Counted from the stretch's first letter, positions 1-8,549 are shown. The stretch is DNA of 64,000 nucleotides from Leptospira sp. (GCA_034439575.1 JAWXAQ010000035.1:32001-96000), one strand, 5' to 3'. Notes: generated from the sequence alone by a model not told the origin. Program-made: numbers and translations.

Positions 1-28
1 AGGTAATTTTCTAAGTATTCAATTGAGC

Positions 29-124
29 AAAAACCTTGTTTCCATCGGTGACGGAGACATGGATGTCGGAGTCCTTCCTTCGAGCACGGAAGTGAGAGGG
101 AAGGGAGATGGGTACGAGGTTTTT
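29..124 (+). repeat. 96-bp structured repeat B, copy 1 (terminal inverted arms, GGA-loop hairpins); IR extended by caattgag/ctcaattg to 20-133
   Basis: aaaccttgtttccatc...gatgggtacgaggttt; near-identical to 1583-1678, 4255-4350 and 4838-4933. Confidence 0.95.
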
Positions 125-171
125 TCTCAATTGGAGAAAAACAAAATAACAATATCCTTTTAATTCCCTTG

Positions 172-309
172 GGCACCTCGCATCCGTTATATTGATGTCA
201 CTTTGTGCGAATAACCGATCCCGCTTTTCGCTCCAATCTTTCGCATAACTTTATTTAAATAAATTTATTTTGGACGCGAAAGGATTTCCGCTTCAATCGG
301 TGGTGCTGG
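172..309 (-). repeat. Structured repeat A, copy 1; overlaps the 3' end of the YdeI-like gene
   Basis: Reverse complement ccagcaccaccgattgaagcggaaatcctt...gttatgcgaaagattggagcgaaaagcgggatcggtt...catcaatataacggatgcgaggtgcc matches 4069-4209. Confidence 0.9.
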
Positions 310-885
310 ATGATTCGCTTTTATGTTTTTTCCAGCTAAATCGACCGTTTGTTCTATTCGCTGTTGTCTTGTCTCGGTTTTTTTAGCGCTGAGTATCCAT
401 AACAAAATTATTTTTTTAGAGGACGACGAAAATAACATAAAGTTGGCATATGCCTTTTTGTTCTTATTAAACAATTTGTGTAGGTCGTCTGGAATCGTTA
501 GATCCTCAATCGAGTCCAAAGCAGTCCATGTGCCCGTTGACTTGGCAAGCTCAATCATTTCAAGTCCAGTTGGAGTCATCAATCCTTGCTCAATCAATCT
601 TGCTACACGTTGTTTGTTGAGCTTACTCCAATTGCTTTTGGGTTTTCGTTTTGAAAAGTATTGTATGCTACTTTCTTCGTCTCGTTTCTTCTTAATGCTA
701 TCAATCCAACCAAAACAAAGTGCTTCTTCCACAGCTTCATCATATGTAACACTCGTTACTGATGAGCTCTTTTTGTATAATACTAACCAGACGCTTTTTT
801 CCTTGCTCTGATTTTTCTTAAGCCAAGTGCGCCATTCTTTTCTGGACTTCGCGTAGAATAATTTATGACCGTCTATAATTTCCAT
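265..885 (-). CDS. YdeI/OmpD-associated (bacteriocin-protection) family protein
   Basis: WRTWL, EAVEEALCFGWIDS, S-x-WSKLNK and IPDDL...KKTETRQQRI motifs. Confidence 0.85.
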   Translation of the reverse strand: MEIIDGHKLFYAKSRKEWRTWLKKNQSKEKSVWLVLYKKSSSVTSVTYDEAVEEALCFGWIDSIKKKRDEESSIQYFSKRKPKSNWSKLNKQRVARLIEQGLMTPTGLEMIELAKSTGTWTALDSIEDLTIPDDLHKLFNKNKKAYANFMLFSSSSKKIILLWILSAKKTETRQQRIEQTVDLAGKNIKANHPAPPIEAEILSRPK

Positions 886-900
886 AATAGATGAACTACC

Positions 901-1203
901 TTATAACTTGAAGCCTTGGATTAGAAAAGACGCTTTGATGGATTGTTCTTTCAAATAGAGAAATTTTTTGCGCTCTTCGTCATTCGAAAAATTCATAAAA
1001 TCCTCTATCGCATCGAACACAACAAGGTGAATTTCATATGGTTTATCTATACTCATTTCAATATAGGCTGAATCATTTGGTCGCATACGCATCAAAAGCT
1101 TTCCATTATATTTTGATATGATTGGTATCGCAATCCTTTCGAACTCTTCGAAGATCGCTTCTTGTCCCTCGTTAATGTATATCAATTGAGTTATGTAGAT
1201 CAT
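901..1203 (-). CDS. DUF1330-like small protein
   Basis: 100-aa ORF; YNGKLLMR and PYEIHLVVF pattern; directly upstream of the YdeI gene. Confidence 0.7.
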   Translation of the reverse strand: MIYITQLIYINEGQEAIFEEFERIAIPIISKYNGKLLMRMRPNDSAYIEMSIDKPYEIHLVVFDAIEDFMNFSNDEERKKFLYLKEQSIKASFLIQGFKL

Positions 1204-1228
1204 AATTTAAGATTAGTTTGTTCAGAAG

Positions 1229-1293
1229 AACCGATCCCTTTTCAAATGTATAGGGATTATTATCAAGAAGAAAATCCGATACCTCCGCTTCAA
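1229..1293 (-). repeat. Degenerate/shortened repeat A remnant
   Basis: Shares aaccgatccc (cf. 213-222) and tccgcttcaa (cf. 287-296) in the same order; inner ggatt/aatcc IR. Confidence 0.5.
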
Positions 1294-1384
1294 AGATTGG
1301 CAATTTACAAAAACAATTGTTAAAGCCTACCCACTCTACTTTCTCTAAATTGCAAGTGGGGTAAATTCTACTAATAAGGAATTT

Positions 1385-1582
1385 GGGACCTAGTTTATTT
1401 TATTATTCGTGGGTGTTTTACGAAATACGATAATTCGCTTCTACTTAACCATCACCATAGACCAAGCAATGCATCTTAAAAAAGCGATTTATTTATAACC
1501 AAATAAACTAAATTCATCTAACAAAAACAAGTTGCCATAATCCATAATAAAGATCCCGCTATTCGATCTTTCTCTTCGGCCA
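1385..1582 (+). repeat. AT-rich leader repeat C, copy 1
   Basis: Aligns to 4372-4576; 47-nt exact identity, 1493-1539 = 4485-4531. Confidence 0.9.
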
Positions 1583-1678
1583 GCAAACCTTGTTTCCATC
1601 GGTAACGGAGACATGGATGTCGGAGTCCTTCCTTCGAACACGGAGGTGAGAGGGAAGGGAGATGGGAACTAGGTTTGC
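1583..1678 (+). repeat. 96-bp structured repeat B, copy 2
   Basis: gcaaaccttgtttccatc...gatgggaactaggtttgc. Confidence 0.95.
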
Positions 1679-1722
1679 AAATTTTGAACCAGTTCACCAT
1701 TAAAAGAACCTTTCTATTCCAA

Positions 1723-2628
1723 GTGCTATCTCCAAATCCCCATGATACTTTTATCAAACGTATTTTTGCAAACAAAGACGATGAGATTGCTTTCTTTCGA
1801 GGAACCTTACCATCCGAAGTTATAGAAATTCTTGATATAGTAAATTTAGAACAAACCAAAGAATCCTTCCTACCCAAAAACCAAAGTCACTCTATAACGG
1901 ATATTTTGTGGAAGATACCGACAAAATCGGGCAAAGAAATCTACACTTATTTACTATTTGAGCATAAATCTTATCATGATCCAAATATATTTTTACAACT
2001 GCTAGGTTATATGGTTCAAATTTATCTATGGCAGAAAGGTAACGGTAAAGAACTTGTTCCCGTGATTCCTTTTGTCTTTTATCACGGAGAAAAGAAATGG
2101 GATTTGGGTCTGAGTTTCAAAGAACAATTTATTAAAAACAAAGACATACAAAAATTATCCCATTACATACCGGATTTTTTCATCGAAGTGTTTGAGTTGG
2201 AAAAGACGGATGTAAAAAAGAAATTCAATCAGTTAACACTTCGCATATTTTTAGAGCTTATCCAGAAGATTCGAGCAGATGTAGACGATTTTCGCCCAGT
2301 TTTTCTTGGGATATTGAAAGAACTGAGCCAAGTAGAAACAGAAGCAAAAAAAGTTGAAATTCTGGAGAAACTTCTTCATTATTTATTTAATGTAAGAGAA
2401 AAAGAGGAAAAAGAATTCCGCGATGTATCGTATTACCAAGTTGAGGGACTCGGAGGAGCATTTATGACAATTATGGATGAGATAAGACTAGAAGGTGAGC
2501 AGAAAGGAAAACTGGAAGGCAAACTTGAAGATGCGGAGAAAATGCTGAACGAGAAAATTGATATTTCTGTGATTTTAAGGGTAACGGGTCTTAAAGAATC
2601 CGACTTACGAAAACGAGGCCTTCTCTAG
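1723..2628 (+). CDS. Rpn family recombination-promoting nuclease/putative transposase (PD-(D/E)XK, Transposase_31-like)
   Basis: NPHD N-terminus, TDILW, LLFEHKSY, QLLGYM, PVIPFVFYHG and C-terminal EGxxEG repeats; GTG 1723 preferred over TTG 1675, which lies inside repeat B. Confidence 0.9.
   Translation: MLSPNPHDTFIKRIFANKDDEIAFFRGTLPSEVIEILDIVNLEQTKESFLPKNQSHSITDILWKIPTKSGKEIYTYLLFEHKSYHDPNIFLQLLGYMVQIYLWQKGNGKELVPVIPFVFYHGEKKWDLGLSFKEQFIKNKDIQKLSHYIPDFFIEVFELEKTDVKKKFNQLTLRIFLELIQKIRADVDDFRPVFLGILKELSQVETEAKKVEILEKLLHYLFNVREKEEKEFRDVSYYQVEGLGGAFMTIMDEIRLEGEQKGKLEGKLEDAEKMLNEKIDISVILRVTGLKESDLRKRGLL
2464..2628 (+). CDS. Putative intragenic RpnS-like small protein (54 aa), in frame with the Rpn gene
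   Basis: GGAGG at 2452-2456, 7 nt before in-frame ATG 2464 (MTIMDEIRLEG...). Confidence 0.65.
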   Translation: MTIMDEIRLEGEQKGKLEGKLEDAEKMLNEKIDISVILRVTGLKESDLRKRGLL

Positions 2629-2656
2629 TAGCCTGCACCACCAAAGAGCTGACTGG

Positions 2657-3187
2657 ATGAACCTGTCTGATGCCACATCGAAGTCTGGTGTCACTGAAAT
2701 AGGGCTAACATCCGTTCTTCGAAATGATGGCTCCTCACATGAAAAGGGTTATTCGATGGATGTTGGAACTATATCTTATTTTAATCAAGCAACCGATAAA
2801 ATAGTAACGGAACCAATAAAATACACGAACAAGGATTTTAAAACTTTGCCAGAAAATACATTAGCAAAACCAAGTGGGACTATCGCTGACTTTCTGGAGG
2901 CAGACAGAATAGAAAGGTCTATACTATACAATCTTAACCCGTATTATATGGTCAACAAGACTGGCGAAGTCATTCCTAATTTCTTTACTTTCGCTCCTAA
3001 GAACTTGTGGGAAACTGACTTTACAAAATTGTCTAAAGAAGACCAGGAAAATGTGGTAACTAGAATGATTGAAGCGGCAAGAGAACATGGGCCAGATTCT
3101 TATACTTTAACAAGAGATATGGCGATCAGAATGTGGGATCATCGCAATCATTTGCACATTTCTGAAACTGGGTTTGGAAGCAAATGA
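2657..3187 (+). CDS. M15/LAS-type zinc peptidase-like domain, probably an N-terminally truncated toxin tip
   Basis: SSHEKGYSMD (SxHxxGxxxD) and HRNHLH (HxH); no signal peptide or clear RBS; ATGA overlap with the next gene. Confidence 0.55.
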   Translation: MNLSDATSKSGVTEIGLTSVLRNDGSSHEKGYSMDVGTISYFNQATDKIVTEPIKYTNKDFKTLPENTLAKPSGTIADFLEADRIERSILYNLNPYYMVNKTGEVIPNFFTFAPKNLWETDFTKLSKEDQENVVTRMIEAAREHGPDSYTLTRDMAIRMWDHRNHLHISETGFGSK

Positions 3188-4068
3188 AAATTTTCAATGT
3201 AATTGCGATTGTTTTTTTCAGTTTATTTTGCAAATCGGAAATGACCAAAGGTCAAACCCAGAAAGAGAACATTTCTCAGTCACATTCTATCGATTATTTT
3301 TTTGATTTGTGGAATATTAATCTCAAAGAAGATTTTAAGAAAGCTTTGAATTCTAATATCGAAGAGGTTCTATATGTAAAATTTAACGATTTTCTGTCAT
3401 TCCGAATGACAAAGTCAATCTTTAAATCAGAACCATTTGATAAGACTCGGTTTTCGATGATTTTAAGTTATCCAGAACCGAATTTTCCAGGAAGAAACGA
3501 TAAAATATTTAACTTTAGAGATGGACGCATTTCTGAGATTTATCGAGAACTAACATATAATAAAATAGAGGAGATAGGGAATACGAATATAGGACTTGCT
3601 TTCACATACAACCAGGGTCTTTTGTCAGAAATATCCTGCCATCACCTGCCGGGATCAAACGGAGCACGATGTGAAGACTCCATCTTTCTCAATACCGATG
3701 GCTCCATTCGGGAAGTAAAAGAATTTAAAATACAATGTAAGCAAGGTTGCGGGCAATTCCAACCTCTACGACAACCAGGGGATTATTTTATCAGCACAAA
3801 CCAAGTATGGGTAAGAGAAAAACCAGATACAAAATCTAAAATCATCGCGGAACTTTCTAAAGATGCAAAGATTGAAGTAATAAAGGATGCCGAGAAATAT
3901 GAAAAGATATTTCCTCATTATGCAACCTGGGCCCAAGTAAAGTTGGCTGACGGCCAGGAAGGTTATGTGTATGGGGCATTTCTTAGAGCACCAGGTGAGC
4001 CTGATGTGGTAGCGATCAAAGAGAAAGCGGAGATTTGGAAAAAGGAAAATGGGGTGATGGGAAGGTAG
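3184..4068 (+). CDS. Exported (possibly lipo-) protein with C-terminal bacterial SH3 (SH3b) domain
   Basis: MKIFNVIAIVFFSLFC signal; VWVREKPDTKSKII...WAQVKLADGQEGYVYGAFL. Confidence 0.8.
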   Translation: MKIFNVIAIVFFSLFCKSEMTKGQTQKENISQSHSIDYFFDLWNINLKEDFKKALNSNIEEVLYVKFNDFLSFRMTKSIFKSEPFDKTRFSMILSYPEPNFPGRNDKIFNFRDGRISEIYRELTYNKIEEIGNTNIGLAFTYNQGLLSEISCHHLPGSNGARCEDSIFLNTDGSIREVKEFKIQCKQGCGQFQPLRQPGDYFISTNQVWVREKPDTKSKIIAELSKDAKIEVIKDAEKYEKIFPHYATWAQVKLADGQEGYVYGAFLRAPGEPDVVAIKEKAEIWKKENGVMGR

Positions 4069-4209
4069 CCCTGCACCACCGATCGAAGCGGAAATCCTTA
4101 CCCTATTAAAAATAAAATATACATACTTAGAGTTATGCGAAAGATTAAAGCGGAGAGCGGAATCGGTTCTTTCGGAAATGCTCCATCCGTATAACACATC
4201 CGAGGCGCC
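4069..4209 (+). repeat. Structured repeat A, copy 2; begins immediately after the SH3 gene stop codon
   Basis: ccctgcaccaccgatcgaagcggaaatcctt...aaagattaaagcggagagcggaatcggtt...catccgtataacacatccgaggcgcc. Confidence 0.9.
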
Positions 4210-4254
4210 AAAAGTAAAGAAAGAGATTTTTATATTCGATCTTTCTTCGGATGA

Positions 4255-4350
4255 GCAAACCTTGTTTCCATCGGTGACGGAGACATGGATGTCGGAGTCC
4301 TTCCTTCGAACACGGAGGTGAGAGGGAAGGGAGATGGGAACGAGGTCTGC
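4255..4350 (+). repeat. 96-bp structured repeat B, copy 3
   Basis: gcaaaccttgtttccatc...gatgggaacgaggtctgc. Confidence 0.95.
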
Positions 4351-4371
4351 TGGGTAAAGCGCACCGAGAAC

Positions 4372-4576
4372 GGGACTAGAAACTAGTTTTTAATATTAGC
4401 GCGTGTTTTACGCAATGCGATAAAACCCCATCAGATTACCATCACCACCAAACACTCATTGAATCTTATAAAAAGCGGTTTTGATTATAACCAAATAAAC
4501 TAAATTCATCTAACAAAAACAAGTTGCCATATTCCATAATAAATATCCTATTATTCGATCTTTCTTTTTTCGGCCA
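4372..4576 (+). repeat. AT-rich leader repeat C, copy 2
   Basis: Aligns with 1385-1582. Confidence 0.9.
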
Positions 4577-4672
4577 GCAAACCTTGTTTCCATCGGTAGC
4601 GGAGCCAGGATGGCGAAGCGGGGGCATTCGAGCAGGAGTGCGAGACAGCCCCGAGATGGGAACAAGGTTTGC
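4577..4672 (+). repeat. 96-bp structured repeat B, copy 4 (divergent interior, same predicted fold)
   Basis: Same arms and length; interior gcggagccaggatggcgaagc-gggg-gcattc-gagcag-gagtgc-gagacag-cccc. Confidence 0.9.
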
Positions 4673-4694
4673 CATCGATGGAAACGAGGTTTGC
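4673..4694 (+). repeat. Extra right arm of repeat B (catc|gatggaaacgaggtttgc)
   Basis: Direct duplicate of the B right arm, preceded by the last bases of the left arm. Confidence 0.75.
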
Positions 4695-4789
4695 CCCTGC
4701 TCCACCGATCGACCGAGCGCCCTCGTCGAGGGAGAGCGGGATCGGGTCATACAAGATTATGTACATCCATATAACAAATCCGAGGTGCC
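4695..4789 (+). repeat. Structured repeat A, copy 3 (short inner hairpin variant)
   Basis: ccctgctccaccgatcga...gagagcgggatcgg...catccatataacaaatccgaggtgcc. Confidence 0.8.
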
Positions 4790-4837
4790 CATCGTCATAA
4801 ATCAAATATAGCTATTCGTTCTTTCTTTCTTCGGCCT

Positions 4838-4933
4838 GCAAACCTCGTTTCCATCAGTAACGGAGACATGGATGTCGGAGTCCTTCCTTCGAGCACGGAA
4901 GTGAGAGGGAAGGGAGATGGGAACGAGGTTTGC
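4838..4933 (+). repeat. 96-bp structured repeat B, copy 5
   Basis: gcaaacctcgtttccatc...gatgggaacgaggtttgc. Confidence 0.95.
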
Positions 4934-5097
4934 TATGCGACATAATATCCTCCATTTTTTCCCAACCCATATCGTCCAATTCTTTTTCCAAAATCAGATT
5001 CGTTTCTGGTTTTCCCCCTTGACTTCGGAGTGGGTACCAAAACTCTTCTCAAAAGACCATCTTTTACCTGCGATCATATATATAAATTAGGTGTTTC

Positions 5098-5259
5098 ATG
5101 AAACGTACATACCAACCAAGCAACGTAAAGCGCATTAGAACTCACGGCTTCCGAACAAGAATGGCCTCTCCAGGCGGACGTAATGTATTAAGCAACCGTA
5201 GAAAGAAAGGACGCCATAAATTGACAGTTTCCGACGAAAAACTCGGGAGAAAGTTCTAG
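5098..5259 (+). CDS. rpmH: 50S ribosomal protein L34
   Basis: Manual translation [53 protein letters not shown] (not in the ORF track). Confidence 0.98.
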
Positions 5260-5262
5260 TAG

Positions 5263-5589
5263 GAGCTTCCTTCGGAGACTCTTTGCGATCAATCGAGGAT
5301 CCAGGAACTCTTTCGTAACCCACGAAAATCAGGAAAAAAGCCCTTACTTGTCCTTTTTAGAAAGAACGAGCGGGATCATTCCTGTTTTTTGTTCTGTCCG
5401 GACAAGTCGCACAAGCGATCTGTCGATAGAAACAAAACGAAACGACTTCTCAGAGAATTAGTTCGTAACCATTTACCGCTGATCCCTAGTGGTTTTGACA
5501 TTGCGTTCCTGGCACATATCGATTTTTCACAAAAAGTTCCGGAAGAGAGACAGGCTATGTTTGTGACTCTCTTTGCGAAATCACCATGA
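5263..5589 (+). CDS. rnpA: Ribonuclease P protein component (start codon unresolved)
   Basis: RNR-like motif [13 protein letters not shown] and GFDIAF; lies between rpmH and yidD; frame open from 5263 but first canonical start is TTG 5389. Confidence 0.85.
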
Positions 5590-5813
5590 ATCGGATTGTA
5601 TTACTTCTTATTTTTTTATATAAGAAATTAATTTCCCCACTTTTACCGCCTTCTTGTCGTTTTACGCCAACTTGTTCGGAATATGCTTTTGAAGCTTTCC
5701 AAAACTATCCATTTTTATCAGCCATTAAACTCAGTGCCTCTCGCATCGCGCGCTGTCACCCCTATCATGAGGGCGGATATGATCCGCTCCCGAAATCAAT
5801 TTCAAAGAGATAA
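5586..5813 (+). CDS. yidD: Membrane protein insertion efficiency factor
   Basis: [18 protein letters not shown]...[12 protein letters not shown]. Confidence 0.95.
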
Positions 5814-5816
5814 CAT

Positions 5817-7802
5817 ATGCAAGAAGAAAGTTCAAATAGACAAGGTAGATTATTTTTAGCTTTATTTATAAGTTTAGCAATTTGGATGGGAATCAATTAT
5901 TTATTCCCACCAGCAAAACCTCCGGTAACAAAGACAACTAACACAACAGCAGTCGATCCCACAAAAGATCCTAAAAAAACAGTCGTTGAAAAAGTCACTG
6001 CCACATCTGCCGCAGAAAAAAGTATCTTAGAAGAAGTAAAAAATCTTCCTGTTGTTAAAAAAGAAGATATCAAAACTTTTTCTGTAAAAACTGATTCCTT
6101 TTTGGTAAAATTTTCTAGCTTAGGTGGAAGGATTACTGAATATTATATTCGTAACCATAAAGAACCAGATGGCAGTGAATTTGTTATCGCTAAAGACCAA
6201 AAGTTTAAAATTGATTTTGATGGCAAAGAAGAATATGCAGTCGAATTATCACGATTCGAAGGTTTTGATTTTAATTTAATTGATAGCAAAGAATCAATTC
6301 CCTTTTCACCTTACAATAGTATTAATTTTGCTTCTTCGTATGACGAGGCGACACGAACCATTACGTTCCAAGCACCATCAGTAGATGGTAAGTATCTTGT
6401 TCAAAAAGAATTCAGATTTTTTCCTTCAGAAAATTATTTTAAATTTAAACTCGTATTGAAAAATTTAAGCAAAGATACGATCACATTAGCATCTGCTAAT
6501 TCTGAATTATATCTGCGATCTTTCGGATCTCTTGGTCCTATTTTAAAAAATCGCGAAGATTTTAATGACCGAGACATTGCACATTACTTTCGTTATTATT
6601 ATTTAGATGGATCTTTTAAAGATCATATCGATGGAAATTCTGCCCAAGGATTCTTTGATAATATAGGATCTTGGTTTGGCGGTTCATCGGCAGGAAAAGA
6701 TGAGCGTTTTGAAATCAAAAAAGGCATAAATGAAAAATTAGATTTCGTTGGAACAGGTAGTCGTTATTTTATCGGAGTACTTGATCCGTTAAACGATAGC
6801 CCGAGTGGAGTTATCTTAGACAATCGCAAAGGAAACGAAACAGGAGTTTTGATTTCTTATGACAATTGGAAACTCGGACCTGGCGAAGAAGTTAAATTGG
6901 ATTATGCGGCTTATGTCGGGGTACGTGAACTCGATGGAACTGCTTTCCGTGATTCAAAACTCGATCCAAAAATCAATACTACCTCTACTTTTGCAGGACT
7001 CAGCGAATCATTAGACAAATCATTTAACCAAGGTATTACGACCCCTCTTCGAAACGGAATCGTTTGGATATTAAAACAAATTTACAAATTTATCCCAAAT
7101 TACGGATGGGCCATTGTTATATTTGCCATATTATTCAAATTAGCATTTTATCCGCTTAACAAAAAACAAGCGGAGTCGATGAAAAAAATGCAAGAGCTTT
7201 CACCACAAATCAAAGCTCTCAATGAAAAATACGCTGACGATCCAAAACTCAAACAAGAAAAAACAGTAGAGTTATACAAAAAGAATGGCACAAACCCCAT
7301 GTCAGGTTGTTTGCCAATGTTAGTTCAAATACCTATCTTTATCGCACTATACACTGCTTTTTCAGATACAGTTGACCTTTGGCATTCACCATTTCTTTGG
7401 ATCAAAGATTTATCAGAGCCAGATACAGTATTTATGACTCCCAAACTGGCATTAGTCGGAGTATTGGCTGTAAATATTTTACCACTCATCATGGTGGGAA
7501 CACAAATCATTCAATCGCGGATGACAACAGTCTCCACAGATCCAAACCAAAAAATGATGATGTATATGATGCCTTTTATCATGTTATATTTTTTCTGGTC
7601 CATGCCAGCTGGTGTGACTATGTATTGGACGATGCAAAATATTCTATCCATTGCTCAACAAGCTTATACGAATAAGTTTGGCAAGACAAATGAAAAGAAT
7701 TTAGCAGCAAACAATGCAAATGCGAATAATGGTAAGGGTACAGCTCCTTCCACAAACAACCAACGTGGTTTTCGCAATAGTAACAAGAAGAAAAAGAAAT
7801 AA
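5817..7802 (+). CDS. yidC: Membrane protein insertase YidC
   Basis: [50 protein letters not shown]. Confidence 0.97.
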
Positions 7803-7826
7803 TTTTTAGCGTATAAGGAAGATTAG

Positions 7827-8549
7827 ATGGATAATTATATATTTGAAGCAGAAGGAAAAAGTAAATCAGAAGCGGAAGATTATACACTCGAGACACTTAG
7901 GTTAGAGCCAGGTGATTTAAAATTCGAAGTTGTTGATTCTGGTAAATCCGGTTTTTTAGGCATCACACAAAAAAAACCTGCCGTAGTACGGGCGTTCGTT
8001 GCCAATAAAGACATTCCTTCTGAAAAAATCATTCATGGTGTAATCCTCACTATCCTTCGCAAAATGGGCATTCCTGCCGAAGTGGTTGGGATGGGCGATG
8101 TGGATGGAAAGATTTATGTAGAGCTCAATAGCAAAGAATCTGGACTTATCATAGGCAAACGTGGAGCTACTCTCGATTCACTTCAGTTTTTAGTAAATTT
8201 GATGGTTGATCCTCGCATTCGTCACAATCGAAAAATTGTTTTAGATATCGAATCTTACCGCGATAAACGCGAGTTATCGCTGATCAGACTTGCAAAATCG
8301 ATTGCCGCATCGGTCATTAAAACTGGTAGATCAAAACTTCTAGATCCAATGAATCCTTTCGAAAGAAGAATCGTTCATATGGCGATCCAAGAAGACGACA
8401 GAGTTTTTACACGCTCAGAAGGCAATGGCACTTTCAAACGTGTCCGCGTCATTTCAGCGAAAGACAAACACAAATACAAAGACATAGAAGATCCGACGAG
8501 AAAAGGCCTTCCTGTAGAAGACTTTGCCGACGAAAGTGAACTTGATTGA
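7827..8549 (+). CDS. jag: RNA-binding protein Jag/KhpB (KH + R3H)
   Basis: [24 protein letters not shown]. Confidence 0.95.

Follow-up and report, generated by a model that had tools for sequence, protein, structure and literature searches.

We describe a repeat-punctuated locus of Leptospira sp. that occupies the first 4.9 kb of a 64,000-nucleotide stretch of DNA (the window, G000:C35:32001-96000, where G000 is the genome under study) and lies directly upstream of rpmH. Comparison with related genomes identifies the locus as the repeat-rich right half of an approximately 10.5 kb lineage-specific insertion between a conserved thioesterase gene and rpmH, and matching to curated models assigns its long-form A repeats to the known Flavo-1 family, here in modular form and outside the Bacteroidota; we regard the whole set as a mosaic of small structured elements of Flavo-1 type. 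G000 is a metagenome-assembled genome of 99.98% completeness, and insertion sequences may be absent from the assembly. Three repeat families, A, B and C, were traced by repeat finding (in which B is family D1), by an Rfam covariance scan, with nhmmer and with a covariance model of B of our own making (R1); membership of Flavo-1 was decided by the RF01705 gathering score of 42 bits. A preliminary description of this DNA had recognized the three families and had set out the elements in the order B1-A1(-)-[ydeI, DUF1330] through to A3-B5-rpmH. It proves to be largely right: the families are real, the order is correct and nhmmer finds no further copy of A, B or C in the other 59 kb of the window.

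Repeats and genes at the locus

By our own sum from the coordinates, the repeats account for about 1.45 kb of the 4.93 kb. Five copies of B lie on the plus strand at positions 19-124, 1573-1678, 4245-4350, 4567-4672 and 4828-4933, with 70-94% identity to a reference copy and nhmmer E values of 5e-26 to 5e-35. The three-hairpin core of B1 (29-124; 96 nt; R1 score 103.6 bits) has a degenerate 5' arm. The core of B2 (1583-1678; 113.2 bits) ends about 45 nt upstream of the probable start of rpn, that of B3 spans 4255-4350 (109 bits) and that of B5 (4838-4933; 112.9 bits) is the last repeat before the conserved block of genes. B4 (4577-4694) belongs to a second subtype, in which both inner hairpins are changed in a compensatory manner, and its core is followed by a 4 nt spacer and an extra 18 nt arm at 4677-4694.

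Family A is represented by two long-form Flavo-1-type elements, A1 on the minus strand at 125-315 (RF01705 at 213-311; 58.8 bits, E = 2.8e-11) and A2 on the plus strand at 4063-4244, which includes a tail (RF01705 at 4063-4168; 42.4 bits), and by a short form, A3 (4690-4827, plus strand), which has the ends of A with the apical part exchanged for a short GC hairpin. Directly after the rpn stop codon there is a 14 nt stub on the plus strand (2630-2643) that equals the 5' end of A when read against A2 4066-4080; it is too short for statistics. An 'A remnant' that had been placed near 1215-1300 is not supported (nhmmer E = 2.9). The two copies of C, at 1380-1576 and 4370-4568 on the plus strand, are 81% identical to each other; C is a leader element with a 3' end that resembles the tail of A, and further copies are found on contigs C11 and C33.

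The genes between these repeats are short. The ydeI/OmdA-family gene (265-885, minus strand; 206 residues; PF13376, 66.4 bits) has 59% amino-acid identity to a gene on another contig in the sister species G020. The first 46 nt of A1 encode its C-terminal codons and stop: the last 14-15 codons together with the stop (265-311) come from A1, and alignment with the G020 homologue stops at residue 192 of 206. It is followed on the same strand by a 100-residue open reading frame (ORF; 901-1203) whose DUF1330 label is weak (PF07045, E = 0.051, 14.4 bits against a cut-off of 23). On the plus strand, rpn (1723-2628) encodes an Rpn/YhgA-like PD-(D/E)XK nuclease that passes both curated cut-offs (PF04754, 158.8 bits against 21; TIGR01784, 101.8 bits against 52.1) and is the sole gene of this kind in G000; alignment with G020 makes the GTG at 1723 its probable start. 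The 176-residue ORF at 2657-3187 (plus strand) shares 36-41% amino-acid identity, in two segments, with a G020 gene adjoining an SH3 gene. It had been labelled a peptidase; no Pfam match is found at E < 0.1, and fold-level atlas leads (M15/Extensin-like_C, TM 0.33-0.43) suggest that it is possibly an M15-like (LAS-fold) cell-wall peptidase. The SH3-domain protein gene (3184-4068, plus strand; 294 residues; PF08239, 39.3 bits) ends in a TAG stop codon that is the start of A2; its homologue in G020 (43% amino-acid identity) also has an A element directly 3' of it. The conserved block begins with the ORF at 5098-5259 (plus strand), named by eye as rpmH (L34), and is 69-79% identical in 24 of 24 relatives.

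None of the five proteins of the locus matches PADLOC, and the description of the cargo as defence- or conflict-like is not borne out. The reported absence of Y1/HUH transposase, integrase and cas genes from the locus is confirmed by the ORF list and a Pfam scan.

Anatomy and distribution of the repeats

The B core of 96 nt consists of 18 bp inverted ends that enclose two inner hairpins, which gives a three-way junction. Over 25 copies (24 distinct rows), 91.9% of paired cells hold pairs compared with 84.4% in 500 shuffles, and 11 pairs vary on both sides, a number that none of the 500 shuffles reached. Most of these double-sided changes trace to two subtypes with compensating hairpins and so amount to few events; two B-like copies in G020 provide two further compensating sequences of hairpin 2. 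The 18 bp terminal arms are paired in 94.6% of cells, i.e. terminal inverted repeats are present, and the ends contain AAC and GTT inside a near-perfect stem. Copies of B across the genome are 74-99% identical. Among them we read from the alignment five combinations of three internal variant blocks, a mosaic pattern that points to gene conversion among the copies. In the full Rfam scan of the locus B had no match, and there was no attC-type match, no attC model having been used.

The A element is a long hairpin with two AGCGGA motifs, closed by an outer 5 bp stem that by eye covaries among copies (GCGCC/GGCGC, GCACC/GGTGC, GCAAC/GTTGC, GCGAC/GTCGC, GCGCA/TGCGC and GCGTC/GACGC). A search for the longest complementary run at this stem gave runs of at least 6 in 16 copies, compared with 8.3 on average and at most 15 in the controls, and was dominated by chance matches in AT-rich DNA. 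Solo copies of A end in ...GGCGCC and lack the 45 nt leader of B. In the covariance scan A3, B and C have no RF01705 match. We considered A as an element of gene 3' ends and rejected this, since 16 of 33 copies follow the end of a co-oriented gene and 20 of 32 precede the start of one, so that no rule emerges. A search with 10 nt words for further half-sites of A was uninformative (269 unrelated matches in coding DNA). Many sites in other species of the genus (G007, G016 and G023 among them) have the 31 nt core of A3 (4707-4737) with 94-100% identity, which makes the short form of A a distinct family conserved throughout the genus.

The Flavo-1 RNA motif is Rfam family RF01705, reported by Weinberg et al. 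(2010; PMC2864571). A1 and A2 pass its curated score, and like Flavo-1 the elements described here are multi-copy and intergenic, follow no rule of orientation to genes and have no known function. They differ in that they occur in a spirochaete lineage rather than in the Bacteroidota, in that the A element of G000 is larger than the Rfam model and has the outer covarying 5 bp stem, in the existence of a short form, and in being coupled to a second module, B, which is free-standing in G000 and lies within the arms in the related genome G049.

The earlier statement that the families are not found elsewhere in the window holds, but it does not extend to the genome. There, B occupies 31 places that form 14 clusters, RF01705 matches 33 times, with 23 of the scores reaching the gathering value, and C is present in about six copies. 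Nearly every B stands directly 3' of an A, C or C-like leader on the same strand, forming a leader-B unit; the longest repeat unit in the whole assembly is an A-B composite of about 280 nt, and G000 has no multi-copy segment above 755 nt. Of 53 matches to the B arm, 51 lie in or beside B or B-like copies and the other two are isolated, with three mismatches. By our own count, neighbouring full-length copies of B are co-oriented in 13 of 14 pairs (binomial probability of about 9e-4), and cargo lies between some neighbouring pairs and not between all. For four of the 14 clusters a tRNA gene is no more than 2 kb away (random placements give 0.49 on average, and a fraction of 0.0005 of 2000 of them reaches four), and one more cluster ends at a 5S rRNA gene. 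B-like copies in G020 are likewise near the end of a 23S rRNA gene and near a tRNA triplet.

R1 was run on 41 genomes of the genus and on 73 genomes of 13 other genera of the family. It gives 30 matches in G000, 19, 19 and 13 diverged copies in G004, G044 and G049, respectively, and 1-5 in eleven other genomes of the genus, with no match in 26 of the 41 and none in the 73 from the other genera. On this distribution B is confined to the genus and has been recently amplified in the species of G000. In G049 a B-like core is nested between Flavo-1 arm matches; B thus resembles the apical module of a long-form Flavo-1 element and looks like such a module turned free-standing in G000. At one G049 locus (L090; G049:C1:298501-306500), a 397 nt direct repeat (98.7% identical, at 2678-3074 and 5523-5919) surrounds a 2.8 kb segment of four ORFs, and the repeat holds a Flavo-1 element with a nested B-like core; a further locus (L091) contains a tandem duplication of about 5 kb with 90% identity.

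Plasmid and phage collections gave no match to the A2-B3 unit. Thirteen loci were recovered when metagenomes were scanned with the B arm; twelve show 100% identity to G000 and hence come from the same organism, and the remaining one, a groundwater contig (L074), differs and is described below. One metagenome contig (L068) joins the ends of contigs C10 and C28 of G000 across two tandem leader-B units, which indicates that these repeats cause at least some of the gaps in the assembly. On contig C11 (L024; G000:C11:39001-47218) we also noted three repeats, D, of about 115 nt (3560-3690, 7320-7460 and 7700-7855, with a partial copy at 5865-5914). Each is directly 3' of a B on the same strand, and the 5S rRNA gene nearby (L024:8110-8218) shares with them a 3' end of about 10 nt as well as the hairpin and T-run. 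Rfam gave no match to D at E < 0.01; these repeats may encode small RNAs, or they may be copies of an attachment site located at the end of the 5S gene.

Comparison with related species

On its left the insertion is bounded by the thioesterase gene, the conserved flank in 19 of 20 loci compared; on its right, conservation with all 24 same-genus genomes of a first draw begins at 5008-5018, some 75-85 nt past B5. The gap between the thioesterase gene and rpmH is about 10.5 kb in G000 compared with 163, 512 and 891 bp in G020, G004 and G024, and is 4.3-7.7 kb in 16 other genomes. A genus-wide hypervariable hotspot at this site was considered and rejected, since the same six genes recur in 14-16 of the 18 gaps compared; the short gaps of the nearest relatives together with the shared genes of the others indicate a lineage-specific insertion. 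A short-form A is found just upstream of rpmH in G004, and a long-form A is found there in G016, from which A3 is probably old at this site. The thioesterase-rpmH spacer of G004 (L003:13578-14089, 512 bp) also has a GC-rich, hairpin-rich stretch without counterpart in G000 or G020.

In G020 the modules of the locus are found at three separate sites. Its rpn is preceded by a fragment of B, with sequence resembling C and A at the opposite end, and is flanked by orthologues of two genes that in G000 are separated by 130 bp. The module is thus at different chromosomal sites in the two genomes, with B or a fragment of it 45-120 nt upstream of rpn in both. The peptidase-like and SH3 genes are on another contig, where the SH3 stop codon marks the beginning of an A element; next comes a C-like element, with no B. 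The ydeI gene is on a third contig, and its homology stops at window position 311, the edge of A1.

Six repeat clusters, including that of the window, were compared with the five nearest species, and all six are at breaks in synteny or in accessory DNA. In the cluster on contig C8 (L023), B ends at 5612 and conservation resumes at 5614, i.e. 2 nt later, and modules at 2604-2988 and 3496-4963 are each conserved alone in other contigs. At C30:3-11 kb synteny breaks at a solo B, C30:141-149.5 kb is accessory throughout, the array on C22 begins right after a conserved tRNA block and C33:48-53.5 kb coincides with a break in synteny. Gene content upstream of rpmH therefore differs among relatives rather than being identical, and breakpoints fall at the edges of repeats, in agreement with the preliminary description. 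Contigs C8 and C33 also hold paralogous two-gene modules (L023:3580-4971 on C8 and L029:917-2118 on C33; 64% and 37% amino-acid identity); the first gene is weakly Peptidase_C39_2-like, and both modules are followed by an A tail and B in the same orientation.

Proposed movement of the modules and relation to known systems

In our view the data are best read, tentatively, as a bacterial interspersed mosaic element (BIME)-like mosaic of Flavo-1-type repeats that would act as portable homology for the shuffling of modules, and not as an integron. The locus would be built of modules of one to three genes, which in the sister species are at separate sites, with the module junctions filled by a mosaic of small, structured, non-coding Flavo-1-type repeats. 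The A elements would be old and would travel with the genes that they follow. B would have multiplied recently, landing immediately 3' to an A or C that ends in ...GTGCC to give leader-B units; this direction of assembly is suggested because solo copies of A lack the B leader and because the SH3-A-C junction of G020 lacks B. The approximately 30 near-identical scattered copies would then serve as portable homology, and recombination and gene conversion between them would allow the DNA between copies to be excised, joined and re-inserted. The outcome would be arrays of co-oriented copies where synteny breaks, in many cases next to rpmH or to genes for tRNA or rRNA. The anatomy and distribution of the repeats, the covariation of the fold, the coincidence of breakpoints with repeat edges and the mosaic copies of B are observed; that modules are moved by recombination between repeats, and not by an enzyme devoted to the task, is what we infer.

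Repetitive extragenic palindromes (REPs) and the BIMEs composed of them, in enterobacteria and pseudomonads, are palindromes of 20-40 nt in hundreds of copies of alternating orientation and are known substrates of rearrangement. The repeats of G000 resemble them as intergenic, non-coding mosaics of a few structured modules in recurring order, in tens of copies or more. They differ in unit length (96-190 nt), in copy number (about 30) and in being co-oriented within a cluster, and no REP-associated tyrosine transposase (RAYT) accompanies them: the co-occurrence with RAYT genes that had been put forward as something to check is not found, PF01797 having no match in the whole genome. Correia and ERIC elements, which are miniature inverted-repeat elements with a folded core, are comparable in their units of about 100 nt, terminal inverted repeats, lineage-specific bursts and intergenic location. 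B differs from these in that inspection by eye of the flanks of 26 copies revealed no target-site duplication, in that no insertion sequence with ends matching B was found in G000, and in that its insertion is site-specific, adjoining another repeat family. G000 likewise has no Y1, IS110 or DDE_Tnp_1 gene (PF01797, PF01548 and PF01609), and has one broken rve gene.

Direct evidence of exchange between repeats is slight and comes from a metagenome. A groundwater contig (L074; 1418 nt, labelled coverage 2) joins a cassette of contig C11 with C and B to A3-B5-rpmH, the switch lying inside B. In this near-identical strain B5 is trailed by an extra B arm of 22 nt, and the B preceding A3 has another leader and another cassette on its left.

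Several observations weigh against the mosaic reading. The contig just described is a single candidate recombinant, the two parents do not differ over the roughly 60 nt in which its switch falls, and it may be an assembly chimera. In contigs from four of the 24 runs that contain the locus, all joints are in repeat copies and are explained by repeat collapse, which is evidence in neither direction, and no recombination event was seen directly. The nearest genomes are 21-31% diverged in the conserved flank, so that the order of events cannot be read from them. The left 5.5 kb of the insertion, half of its length, has no repeat at all, and some arrays, such as the A-B-A-B-A array on C22, have no cargo. 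Part of the co-orientation is due to local tandem duplication (the C22 array and pairs in G049). B3 is missing from the orthologous SH3-A-C junction of G020, indicating that at least some repeats came later than the modules; the repeats may simply insert into intergenic DNA at pre-existing junctions, as this case suggests. Finally, U-G wobbles conserved on one strand hint at an RNA function of which the mosaic reading makes no use. What stands of the 'shuffling hotspot delimited by structured repeats' of the preliminary description is thus the lineage-specific DNA, the dispersal of its modules in G020 and the breaks at repeat edges; the late repeats, the cargo-free arrays and the repeat-free left half do not fit it.

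The same observations lend themselves to a passive account, in which selfish or regulatory repeats accumulate in tolerant, newly acquired intergenic DNA and mark junctions without causing them, the modules having come by ordinary horizontal transfer and rearrangement. The late arrival of B3, the arrays without cargo and the repeat-free half of the inserted DNA all favour it, as does the occurrence of A singly at about 20 other intergenic sites with no rule of orientation to genes. We nevertheless regard it as somewhat unlikely, since random insertion does not predict co-orientation in 13 of 14 neighbouring pairs, the resumption of conservation 2 nt after a B or the mosaic copies of B.

A more active, speculative scheme, which we consider unlikely, is that cassettes are exchanged at the Flavo-1-type repeats: one repeat together with one to three genes would leave as a circle and enter again at any other copy, so that co-oriented arrays grow up at rpmH, tRNA and rRNA loci, with catalysis by the Xer-like recombinase of contig C11 or by a host factor that reads the CGGA-motif hairpins. 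The stricter form of this idea, that B or the leader-B unit is the site of that recombinase and that the window locus is a recombinase-less array, is in our judgement quite unlikely. Integron attC sites are built of R''/L'' and L'/R' boxes with conserved AAC/GTT triplets and have bulged bases that give strand choice; the IntI integrase carries a family-specific extra domain, and clusters of attC sites without an integrase are termed CALINs. The G000 arrays are comparable in having co-oriented folded sites between short, unrelated and partly toxin-antitoxin cargo, and one of them starts at a tyrosine recombinase gene, which other arrays lack. This gene (G000:C11:40691-41608) is XerA-like, its stop codon is 3 nt from a B and five co-oriented copies of B follow, separated by two VapBC-like PIN pairs and small ORFs. 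Its product passes NF040815 ('tyrosine recombinase/integron integrase'; 231 bits against 220), in G016 the homologue has a weak B-like element (36.7 bits) some 0.4 kb downstream, and the A stub after rpn resembles a half-site.

Against this, the recombinase fails the integron-integrase model TIGR02249 (162 bits, in two stretches, against 265) and its closest solved relative is archaeal XerA; no IntI-type integrase is present. Nor is the link between recombinase and array conserved: homologues with 51-59% identity are found in 17 of the 40 other genomes of the genus, four of their loci (10.7-16 kb each) have no repeats of at least 40 nt and no Rfam match above the gathering score, and G004, G044 and G049, with their 13-19 B-like copies, have no such recombinase at E <= 1e-40. 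The B sites moreover have near-perfect 18 bp stems without bulged bases and high sequence identity, extra leader modules (A, C, E and D) stand between the cassettes of G000, and some arrays are free of cargo. The 'integron-like gene capture' of the preliminary description is accordingly not demonstrated, no dedicated recombinase being tied to the repeats. Treponema was reported as the only spirochaete clade known to have integrons as of 2013 (PMC3607928). Judged by titles and the beginnings of abstracts, the literature searched describes no integron in Leptospira; by their titles, none of the Leptospira repeat papers listed concerns the present elements, no search having been made for B itself.

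An account in which leader-B units are kept as structures of untranslated regions or as small RNAs for gene regulation, with the link to variable DNA secondary, appears very unlikely to us. It would explain the U-G pairs on the plus strand of B (22 of 24 at one pair; 16 of 24 and 12 of 24 at two others), the loop sequences kept across species and the arrangement on C11, where three copies of B are each followed by an approximately 115 nt D element on the same strand that ends in a hairpin and T-run. Flavo-1 regions have also been listed among unannotated transcribed regions of Leptospira (bioRxiv 10.1101/2023.03.29.534852). The orientation of B is, however, with the neighbouring genes in the window and against most of them on C11, no site resembling a promoter or terminator turned up in the repeats in a simple scan, and in a flavobacterium Flavo-1 matches are reported sense or antisense to transcripts alike (PMC9723704).

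The least probable account, to which we give hardly any credence, makes B-rpn an autonomous unit in which Rpn mobilizes B or promotes RecA-independent joining at its copies: rpn is found in only two of the 41 genomes of the genus, G000 and G020, the latter with the top-scoring foreign copy of B, it keeps its upstream B or B fragment at different sites, and Escherichia coli Rpn proteins are reported to raise RecA-independent recombination (PMC5350276), but rpn and B-like families do not go together, as G004, G044 and G049, as well as G024 and G052 with close copies of B, lack rpn, none of 45 Rpn loci of other organisms (25-41% amino-acid identity) has an A or B element within 3 kb, and Rpn proteins are also reported as a toxin-antitoxin type of phage defence (PMC10400941).

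Were the cassette-exchange scheme correct, it would amount to integron-like shuffling of genes without IntI or attC, would give a function to the orphan Flavo-1 motif and would add a new means of gene capture to a group with no reported integron in the literature searched. For the Flavo-1 family itself, catalogued since 2010 and unexplained, the present elements suggest a modular make-up: there are arms, there is a short form, and the three-way-junction core seems able to detach, having apparently become a repeat in its own right that was recently amplified. In this Leptospira lineage, copies of the repeats coincide with differences in gene order between species, which offers a concrete and testable idea, namely that they may serve as portable homology or as recombination sites in the shuffling of small gene modules.

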